The notes beneath the pieces were generated by a model. That model was not told the origin of the DNA, did no database searches, and worked only from the letters and a program-made list of their open reading frames with translations. A program made the position numbers and the translations under genes. DNA of 64,000 bases, taken from IMG/VR virus record IMGVR_UViG_3300038608_000011, positions 1 to 64,000 of that record; one strand, given 5' to 3'. How positions within the stretch are numbered: the stretch's first letter is position 1; each line of letters starts with the position of its first letter. The stretch comes from a virus. Taxonomy: Duplodnaviria; Caudoviricetes. Shown here one piece after another: positions 21,018 through 22,072 of the stretch.

Positions 21018-22072
21018 TACAGATTAAAGTTGAATACCTGCGACATAGCGGGGATGACCTTGCTGTAGTAGATGCTGCGAGAACTTCTTTTGATAAGCAG
21101 AGTGAGTGGGACTACTCTTGTGATGAGATGTGCTTCACTTGTGTTTGTGGTGGACGAAATAAGAAACTGAAATCTTCGGATGAAAAACTTATCAAGTACC
21201 TCGCAAACCACAAGCATTATTCACCATTTAATCATAGCTTCATTAGTGTTCGTGTTACAGCTCCGGTATTTGTAGCACGACAACTTGTCAAGCACAAGTT
21301 TATGCCATTTAACGAGGTGTCACGTCGTTATGTTACTGATACGCCAGAATTCTACAAGCCTGACCGCTGGCGCAAGGCAGCCCCAAATGTAAAACAAGGA
21401 TCTTCTGCAACAGAGTTTGTAGATATTATTAACAGTAAATGGAAGCGTGATGAAGGTACACCAAGTGAACGACGCAACCCTTGCACTATCAAGTTTGCAC
21501 GTCTGGGGTGGAGAGTAAAGGCAGAAGGTCTTCCGTTTGATCTAAACATTGAAGATGTTGAGTGGAATGAAGTTTGCCCTTTGATGAATATCCCACTAAA
21601 CTATGATGTTTCACGAGGTGGTATTTTTGATGATACCCCTACCTTTGACAAAATTTACCCTGACAAGGGGTATGTAAAGGGGAACGTTCGAGTTATTAGT
21701 GATTTGGCTAACCGAATGAAAAGCTCAGCCACGCCAGAACAACTAGAAACATTTGCACGGGCTACATTGTTGGAGTGGAAAGGTGAAGTGGGTTGTGGTC
21801 AAAGTCCTGAGAAGTTGGCTCAAGCAAGCCTTAAAGAATATGAACGGCTTTTGTCTTTAGGCGTGTGTGCCGAACAAGCCAGACAAGTTCTTCCACAATC
21901 GATGATGACGACATGGATTTGGAGCGGTACATTGGGGGCCTTCTGTGATATGCTTGTTCTTCGTCTTGATGAACATACTCAATATGAAACACGAGTAGTT
22001 GCACAACAAGTGGCAGAGATTGTTAAAGAGTTGTTTCCTGTAAGTTATGTGGCTTTAGTAGAGGATAAATAA
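21014..22072 (+). CDS. thyX: Flavin-dependent thymidylate synthase with in-frame endonuclease-domain insertion
   Basis: HYSPF, [8 protein letters not shown]...[17 protein letters not shown].ETR; about 120 extra residues between KQGSS and the EQAR helix. Confidence 0.9.
   Translation: [352 protein letters not shown]

Follow-up and report, generated by a model that had tools for sequence, protein, structure and literature searches.

A predicted PacI-like nuclease domain inserted in frame in a phage ThyX and carried on a recently exchanged thyX cassette

The thyX gene examined here lies at 21014..22072 on the plus strand of the window, by which we mean the whole 64,000-nucleotide (nt) stretch that was analysed (positions 1 to 64,000 of the IMG/VR virus record IMGVR_UViG_3300038608_000011; Duplodnaviria, Caudoviricetes). 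In its own reading frame it carries an additional segment with a nuclease-type fold. Homing endonuclease genes classically spare their hosts by residing in self-splicing introns, in inteins or between genes. Here, a nuclease fold appears to be left in the finished protein of the only thymidylate synthase of the phage, and comparative data indicate that the cassette which carries it is still moving. Taken together, the results make it probable, in our judgement, that we are dealing with a homing-type cassette of ~0.5 kilobase (kb) which places a PacI-like domain in the thyX frame, this domain being tolerated in the mature enzyme. The original prediction, made from the letters of the window without database searches, of a nuclease-type domain inserted in frame as a loop in an otherwise intact ThyX held in every sequence-based test made.

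The ThyX insert and its predicted nuclease fold

The open reading frame (ORF) of thyX is uninterrupted, encodes 352 amino acids (aa) plus a stop and is preceded by a Shine-Dalgarno sequence, AAGGAGG. Its product matched Pfam Thy1 with an E-value of 1e-39, the match being split into two separated stretches, and scored 126.6 against the thyX equivalog TIGR02170 of NCBIfam (cut-off 87.9). In the model of the full protein, the ThyX core superposed on Thermotoga maritima ThyX (Z ~21, 199 residues). Both sequence and fold, over the whole core, place the protein in the ThyX family (PF02511 / TIGR02170). No ThyA was found in the 77.7-kb (77,677-bp) virus record, thyX being the sole thymidylate synthase found there.

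The N-terminal core (aa 1-131; 21014..21406, plus strand) ends in the conserved NVKQGSS motif and is most like an insert-less ThyX clade. The C-terminal core comprises aa 263-352 (21800..22069, plus strand). Between the two, the insert (aa 132-262; 21407..21799, plus strand) directly follows NVKQGSS and is extra compared to close insert-less relatives. In the alignment with Thermus thermophilus ThyX, window residues 47-132 corresponded to chain residues 36-121 and window residues 267-350 to chain residues 134-217; 134 residues of the window protein occupy the place of 12 residues in the solved structure. These boundaries, for which alignment with thyX from relatives had been suggested as a check, agree with the initially proposed insert of about 120 aa between KQGSS and the next ThyX helix (21425-21800).

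Within the insert, the nuclease core (aa 167-252; 21512..21769, plus strand) is homologous to a free-standing paralogue of 157 aa, ORF 25399 (25399..25872, plus strand), located directly downstream of nrdA. The two were aligned by BLASTP with 41/86 identities (48%, E 3e-24), and all the motifs from which their relationship had been proposed were present. Besides these two, tblastn detected no copy of the domain, either in the window or elsewhere in the 77.7-kb record. In ORF 25399, the PacI-like domain is preceded by an N-terminal zinc ribbon (CxxC...CxxC). No Pfam or NCBIfam model was found for the insert or for ORF 25399. The insert matched PHROG 3322 'endonuclease' (5e-24), and a weak match of the domain to PHROG 1035 'endonuclease VII' was also observed (1.5e-8).

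The AlphaFold model of ORF 25399 reached a predicted local distance difference test score (pLDDT) of 93. Its best solved match was PacI (Foldseek E 5e-3, prob 1.0; VIA Z 7.2, root-mean-square deviation 3.0, 83 aa), followed by Hpy99I, Gme HNH, McrA, T4 endonuclease VII (endo VII; Z 3.6) and Cas9 HNH. When the whole of ThyX was modelled (pLDDT 84), residues 142-237 superposed on PacI with a Z of 6.4, and the linkers at aa ~137-150 and 250-262 showed low model confidence, as expected for linkers. Both models thus have the PacI-like nucleases (group 20 of PMC5714182) as their closest fold. Since PacI and other His-Me nucleases are the fold matches, the insert family can be assigned to the beta-beta-alpha-metal (His-Me) finger. 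According to its model, the insert is a PacI-like beta-beta-alpha-metal nuclease-fold domain and no classical HNH.

In PacI, the catalytic His is absent, a Tyr of the omega loop is used and Asp and Asn are located on the metal (PMC5714182; PMC4081073). Across the insert family, the catalytic-His position is R or K (R106 in ORF 25399, K213 in the insert). Residues C81, D105, Y113, N117, N126 and K129 were invariant in 23 free-standing members, and Y113 of the ORF 25399 model lies in a loop between strands 102-106 and 118-122. Placed on the fold, D105/D212 are at a strand end, Y113/Y220 between two strands and N126/N233 in a helix. The missing His, the loop Tyr and the Asp/Asn of the PacI-like group are therefore all found in the family, with a residue correspondence given by fold position and not by residue-level superposition. 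The putative active-site or structural residues of the insert are C188 (21575), D212 (21647), Y220 (21671), N224 (21683), S229, N233 (21710) and K236 (21719), on the plus strand. C188, Y220, N224 and N233 were kept in 45/45 thyX inserts and D212, S229 and K236 in 44/45, the window insert keeping all seven. The two Cys4 motifs of the PacI-like group were not found in the window insert, which has the single conserved C188.

The change of LDRID to FDKIY had been put forward as the mark of a domesticated, dead domain. This part of the original prediction did not stand. The fourth position of the motif varies in free-standing members too (DRMY, DKID, DKKV), the family is PacI-like and devoid of the catalytic His, and its invariant residues are kept in the window insert and in 44-45 of the 45 thyX inserts. 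FDKIY is thus no sign of a dead nuclease.

Membership of the Endo VII/F-CphI 'DHHRN' group was considered and rejected. This signature consists of D40, H41, H43, R54 and N62 (PMC6083498), and both His residues are absent from the insert family, which instead reads D-R/K-x-D/Y ... K ... N.

A homodimer model of the insert (aa 145-262) gave an interface score (ipSAE) of 0.74, compared to 0.33 for the best control, with at least 89% of the contacts shared between runs and a partner pLDDT of at least 81. In the calibration of this score, 20 out of 30 proteins with a paired solved structure came up to this mark, as did 1 out of 23 with a single-chain one. The model supports pairing of the insert domain as in PacI.

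The family appeared to be very large, as phmmer with ORF 25399 against 1.84 billion representative proteins returned 17,279 clusters at E<=1e-3, many of them with two tandem copies of the PacI-like domain. In many members, among them P0128, P0133, P0140 and P0151, the two tandem nuclease domains lie behind long Lys/Asn-rich repeats. By analogy, such tandem members are reminiscent of single-chain pseudo-dimeric homing enzymes. Homologues in isolated phages are annotated as hypothetical, 'HNH endonuclease' or 'restriction endonuclease'. No host-enzyme domains were detected in ten long family members that were scanned, and no other in-frame carrier enzyme was seen among the top matches. In Streptomyces phage Targaryen (L085 1339-2473, gp24-gp23), a family member of 152 aa, annotated 'HNH endonuclease' (gp24), is located directly upstream of a thyX-like gene and overlaps its start. 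With this free-standing homologue abutting thyX, the family occurs with thyX in two arrangements. A similar nuclease/thyX pair was observed in phage Belfort.

The C-terminal half of the domain (GY..GN..vIS..AN.MK; 21632-21754 in the insert, 25693-25824 in ORF 25399) also matched PHROG 1400 'Srd anti-sigma factor' and PHROG 4592 'decoy of host sigma70', with E-values of 2e-6 to 0.05. These matches suggest that T4 Srd-like proteins contain a module related to the PacI-like domain.

Recent exchange of a thyX cassette

Among the proteins of a large database, many ThyX of 330-390 aa carry an insert at the same site and many others, of 225-255 aa, do not. To place the insert in the history of its host gene, the ThyX core tree was built with the insert columns removed. 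In this tree, the window ThyX and P0011 are nested in a clade supported at 98-99% whose other members are all insert-less, and sister pairs, one with and one without insert, recur elsewhere. Parsimony counted 11-12 gains or losses of the insert, at least six of which are forced by well-supported branches. In the insert tree, the window is found in 'group A' together with P0002-P0010 (support 96) and P0011 in another subgroup (98), so that two insert subtypes occupy the same site within one core clade. When applied to the core tree, the approximately unbiased test rejected monophyly of group A (delta lnL 185, p 0.0015). ORF 25399 falls in a clade different from that of the thyX inserts. The insert is thus sporadic at a fixed site of a conserved gene and in conflict with the phylogeny of this gene, as are homing elements.

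The same conflict was visible along the protein. The window ThyX resembles insert-less relatives at aa 3-85 and aa 296-352, and its C-terminal core from about aa 291 is 90-97% identical to them. From about aa 131 to 285 it resembles group A, with inserts 71-82% identical. The closest group-A insert is found in an unrelated podovirus-like genome (L083). This genome also includes, at 125-5468, three HNH_3/HNH ORFs around a DNA polymerase A gene and is, by these ORFs, rich in mobile nucleases. IMG/VR provided three insert-bearing thyX loci, all of them distant; closer loci were obtained by exact protein look-up.

Ten further proteins in the 90% cluster of the window ThyX share the insert, aa 116-283 being 96-98% identical. 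Their N-terminal halves are 75-81% identical to that of the window, several with clearly different variable loops, some of which match insert-less alleles. The loci of three such relatives match the window within thyX only, and the neighbouring genes showed no nucleotide similarity.

At the DNA level, comparison with the related phage L094 (90 kb) delimited a tract of low divergence, bounded by differences at 21358 and 21865. Besides the insert, the recently exchanged cassette (21359..21864, plus strand, ~0.5 kb) takes in the codons for NVKQGSS and the ThyX helix that comes first downstream of the insert. The genes adjoining thyX in L094 showed no nucleotide similarity to those of the window. 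Differences between the two phages amounted to 40% at the gene start (21014-21165) and 14.4% over 21166-21373, fell to 7/480 (1.5%) over 21374-21853 in the cassette, where third codon positions are 95-100% identical, and rose again to 6.7% over 21854-22033 and 44% at the gene end (22034-22072). The divergence of the cassette differed from that of adjacent thyX with a Fisher p of 2e-9. Insert-bearing and insert-less alleles have constant breakpoints, a variable segment of ~125 nt being replaced by ~460 nt.

Public contigs were also compared with the region. Two further soil samples hold the window thyX with its insert with zero differences. One plant-associated metagenome contains an insert-bearing allele of the L094 type and also an insert-less contig in which 210 other letters connect 21306 with 21862. 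Recent lateral transfer has involved exactly the cassette tract. The tract is centred on the element and includes co-converted flanks, as for homing elements. Of the two possibilities initially offered, a self-mobilising thyX or a dead domain, the first is strongly favoured by the sporadic distribution, the conflict between core and insert trees and the near-identical 0.5-kb cassette in otherwise diverged thyX.

In L094, we also observed a ribonucleotide reductase (RNR) large-subunit gene (6658-9507) with an intein carrying a LAGLIDADG domain. The same module can therefore host classical and splice-free selfish elements side by side.

Mobility, domestication or removal of the insert

We propose that ThyX and the nuclease are made as one protein, in which the nuclease would fold independently and be joined by flexible linkers. 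A search at the insert start revealed no internal in-frame start codon preceded by a Shine-Dalgarno sequence, which leaves separate translation of the nuclease unsupported; it would most simply be made within ThyX. The enzyme might tolerate the extra domain because this is carried on linkers at a naturally variable surface segment. During co-infection, the ThyX-nuclease fusion would cut insert-less thyX alleles near the insertion point or the NVKQGSS-coding sequence, its nuclease domains pairing as a PacI-like homodimer, possibly aided by the ThyX tetramer. The break would then be repaired by recombination with the insert-bearing allele, so that the cassette, together with short flanks, would be copied into the allele that had been cut. 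Once filled, a site would be protected, since the target is interrupted by the insert. In this scheme, the insert would be catalytically active, and the fusion itself, rather than a free-standing paralogue, would cut the proposed target.

Selection on the insert was estimated from the few computable pairs, since the synonymous divergence (dS) was saturated in most pairwise comparisons. The ratio of nonsynonymous to synonymous divergence (omega) was 0.03-0.08 for the insert, and its nonsynonymous divergence (dN) was 0.06-0.15 versus 0.20-0.42 for the ThyX core in the same pairs. As measured by these sequence comparisons, the insert is under purifying selection in the thyX frame.

Several points weigh against the proposed scheme. 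A dN lower in the insert than in the core would also fit a long-held, host-useful domain, and the thyX inserts are all on one side of a branch versus the sampled free-standing proteins (support 82). Homology with PacI is visible at the fold level alone (Z 6-7) and was not detected by sequence profile: searches of PDB sequences with ORF 25399 returned chance matches only, and a profile of 23 family members had no PDB match at E<=10. The insert family lacks the second Cys4 zinc site of PacI, and the N-terminal zinc ribbon which ORF 25399 shares with some thyX inserts is not found in the window insert. During co-infection, the cassette could be moved by ordinary homologous recombination without a nuclease of its own, or the cut could come in trans, for example from the free-standing paralogue. 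In addition, the contigs are compatible with rare spliced forms, and no RNA run with the window sequence was present among the public runs listed.

The alternative that survives best, though we regard it as unlikely, is a domesticated accessory domain, vertically kept, useful to the phage and shuffled by general phage recombination and not by its own nuclease. Such a domain might, for example, serve as a tether of ThyX to DNA or to the replisome, regulate thyX or degrade host DNA to feed nucleotide synthesis. Besides the strong purifying selection with its low dN and the one-sided position of thyX inserts in the tree, a deep association (dS is saturated between insert subgroups) and the location of the domain among nucleotide-metabolism genes would be in line with such a role. 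However, presence of the insert is sporadic among very close ThyX cores, with most of the clade of the window insert-less, and the exchanged tract consists of the insert and short flanks, the neighbouring genes being unrelated at the nucleotide level. The two insert subtypes at the same site in one core clade, and alleles with and without insert together in one sample, also speak against this reading. Moreover, the putative catalytic residues are universally kept, and these are not needed for pure DNA binding.

Alternatively, the cassette could be mobile with a nuclease that does not cut, mobilisation being provided in trans by a paralogue like ORF 25399 or by a nuclease gene adjacent to thyX. 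There is a precedent, as T4 MobE mobilises the defunct I-TevIII (PMC2790892). Candidates exist in the free-standing paralogue 3.3 kb downstream in the same genome and in the homologue which abuts thyX in Targaryen, and the zinc ribbon of ORF 25399 is not shared by the window insert. We nevertheless consider this quite improbable: conservation of all family-invariant residues and strong purifying selection are unexpected for a passenger, ORF 25399 is just 48% identical to the insert and belongs to a different clade, and tblastn around the insert-bearing thyX loci examined revealed a second copy of the domain in L003 only.

It is less probable still, to a degree that we would call remote, that the insert is lost before ThyX becomes functional, whether through an unrecognised self-splicing RNA, atypical protein splicing or proteolysis, and would then be a hidden intron or intein. 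In nucleotide-metabolism genes of phages, homing nucleases usually reside in introns or inteins, and the LAGLIDADG intein in the RNR large subunit of L094 is one such case in a relative. However, Rfam reported no intron at E<=1 in 20500-26500, and the RNA fold of 21400-21810 was no stabler than shuffled sequence (z -0.85). Nearly the whole insert of ~390 nt codes for the nuclease fold, the sole fold detected in it, so that a ribozyme core would have no space. In 45/45 homologues, the frame continues open through both junctions, with conservation at the protein level. No Hint or intein match was found by Pfam in the window ThyX, nor were conserved Cys/Ser...His-Asn splice-junction residues observed, the junction residues varying among the 45 homologues. 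Rfam, RNA folding, Pfam and the homologues thus agree with the continuous frame, free of group I intron or intein features, noted at the outset. We infer from these sequence features that the insert stays in mature ThyX, unspliced.

Misassembly joining a nuclease gene into thyX, conceivable in a metagenome-assembled virus record, has a negligible probability given the same architecture in more than 50 independently assembled proteins (JGI, ENA, NCBI, Logan) and the zero differences, insert included, in the contigs of the two further soil samples.

Relation to known systems and genomic setting

No description of a nuclease domain within ThyX turned up in full-text literature searches. Among published systems, the ShiLan domain of mycobacteriophage DNA methylases (Arsenault, Gosselin & Gogarten 2025, PMC11855218) comes closest. 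Both are insertions in a phage enzyme gene which leave the host frame open and show neither intron nor intein features; both are distributed sporadically, like an actively homing element, and are predicted to loop out of the host protein. In ShiLan, however, the HNH is not read in the methylase frame, in which the product is no more than a hairpin-like loop. In the thyX insert, the nuclease fold itself is in the host frame and would become a domain of the enzyme. The host genes also differ, thyX being the only thymidylate synthase of the phage and the methylase being dispensable, as do the nucleases, PacI-like (Tyr type) for the thyX insert and classical HNH for ShiLan.

PacI (PDB 3ldy/3m7k; His-Me 'group 20', PMC5714182, PMC4081073) remains the best structural match of both models (Z 7.2 and 6.4). 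It has in common with them the beta-beta-alpha-metal fold, the absence of the catalytic His, the omega-loop Tyr and Asp/Asn at the metal-ligand positions. The homodimeric state of PacI is also predicted for the insert. On the other hand, PacI has two Cys4 zinc sites, compared to none complete in the insert and one ribbon in ORF 25399, has no detected sequence-profile similarity to the family and is a stand-alone restriction enzyme, not a mobile in-gene cassette.

Free-standing phage homing endonucleases (T4 MobE and Seg; F-CphI of cyanophage S-PM2; PMC2790892, PMC6083498) also have His-Me/Endo VII-type folds, are tied to conserved nucleotide-metabolism genes and carry out intronless homing with co-conversion of flanks. 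The arrangements of ORF 25399 (after nrdA) and Targaryen gp24 (before thyX) are those of such enzymes. In contrast to these intergenic genes, which encode separate proteins, the thyX cassette lies within coding sequence. F-CphI and Endo VII ('DHHRN') moreover need His41 and His43, which the insert family does not possess. Inteins with nested homing endonucleases (mycobacteriophage ThyX and RNR; PMC5050341) are likewise selfish elements inserted in frame, at conserved sites, in genes of these types, thyX among them. They differ by their Hint splicing domain, conserved junction residues and self-excision, none of which was found for the thyX insert.

On the basis of these comparisons, we would class the thyX insert as a homing endonuclease element that is unusual in its in-frame, splice-free way of life and PacI-like in its catalytic type. 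Whether it represents a fourth lifestyle of homing endonucleases, next to those in introns, in inteins and between genes, is, in our estimation, an evenly balanced matter. In such a lifestyle, the nuclease would remain permanently in frame, as a surface domain of an essential enzyme, and would cut insert-less alleles as a component of this enzyme, the ThyX tetramer supplying the dimer for double-strand cleavage. The PacI-like family (>17,000 clusters, no Pfam model) would then be major, unrecognised phage homing nucleases. If true, this would widen the range of ways in which selfish nucleases colonise essential genes and provide a natural case of a permissive domain-insertion site in ThyX. It would also point to a very large uncurated PacI-like (Tyr-type) phage family as a source of new site-specific nucleases, and it would be a warning for annotation, as "long" ThyX or ThyA genes may conceal mobile elements. 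The system is readily testable, with alleles carrying or lacking the insert and a candidate target all defined.

The surroundings of thyX could be compared with those of an insert-less relative, L081; megablast of 20800-26000 against isolated phages gave no match. The gene order in L081 is DUF3310, NT5C, one small ORF, thyX (without insert), two small ORFs, nrdB and nrdA, and nucleotide identity with the window across the syntenic region is 74-80%. The genes for the small (22646-23653, plus strand) and large (23665-25353, plus strand) subunits of RNR, together 22646..25353, are syntenic with those of L081 at ~80% nucleotide identity. No sequence similar to ORF 25399 was found after nrdA in L081. 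The gene which follows ORF 25399 is not homologous to its L081 counterpart, so ORF 25399 cannot be called a clean insertion or deletion. Within the nucleotide-metabolism module that it shares with thyX, it has the appearance of an independent, free-standing gene of homing type.

Two features of the ThyX core were also observed. The canonical RHR triplet is KHK in the window (21287-21295, aa 93-95), compared to FRHRIASYNELSGRY in T. maritima. Since KHK is common to the whole clade, with or without insert, it is unrelated to the insert; it may be relevant to binding of flavin adenine dinucleotide (FAD) or deoxyuridine monophosphate (dUMP). At further positions of the ThyX motif (RHRxxxxxxxS.RY) and among the Arg residues of the dUMP site, S103, R105, Y106, R290 and R317 were invariant in the alignment. 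A second hypervariable loop (21110-21165, aa 33-52) includes four cysteines in the window. The four-Cys loop is also present in some insert-less relatives, and other close relatives carry very different loops of 10-45 residues at this site. The loop may form a small zinc knuckle or mark a second place in ThyX where insertions are permitted.

Finally, a 33-nt intergenic element is located just 3' of nrdA (25356-25388). It overlaps a weak minus-strand Rfam match (SpF51, E 0.09) and is 97% identical to L096 9385-9417, where it follows nrdB in surrounding DNA unrelated to the window. This element may be a conserved terminator or regulatory hairpin.

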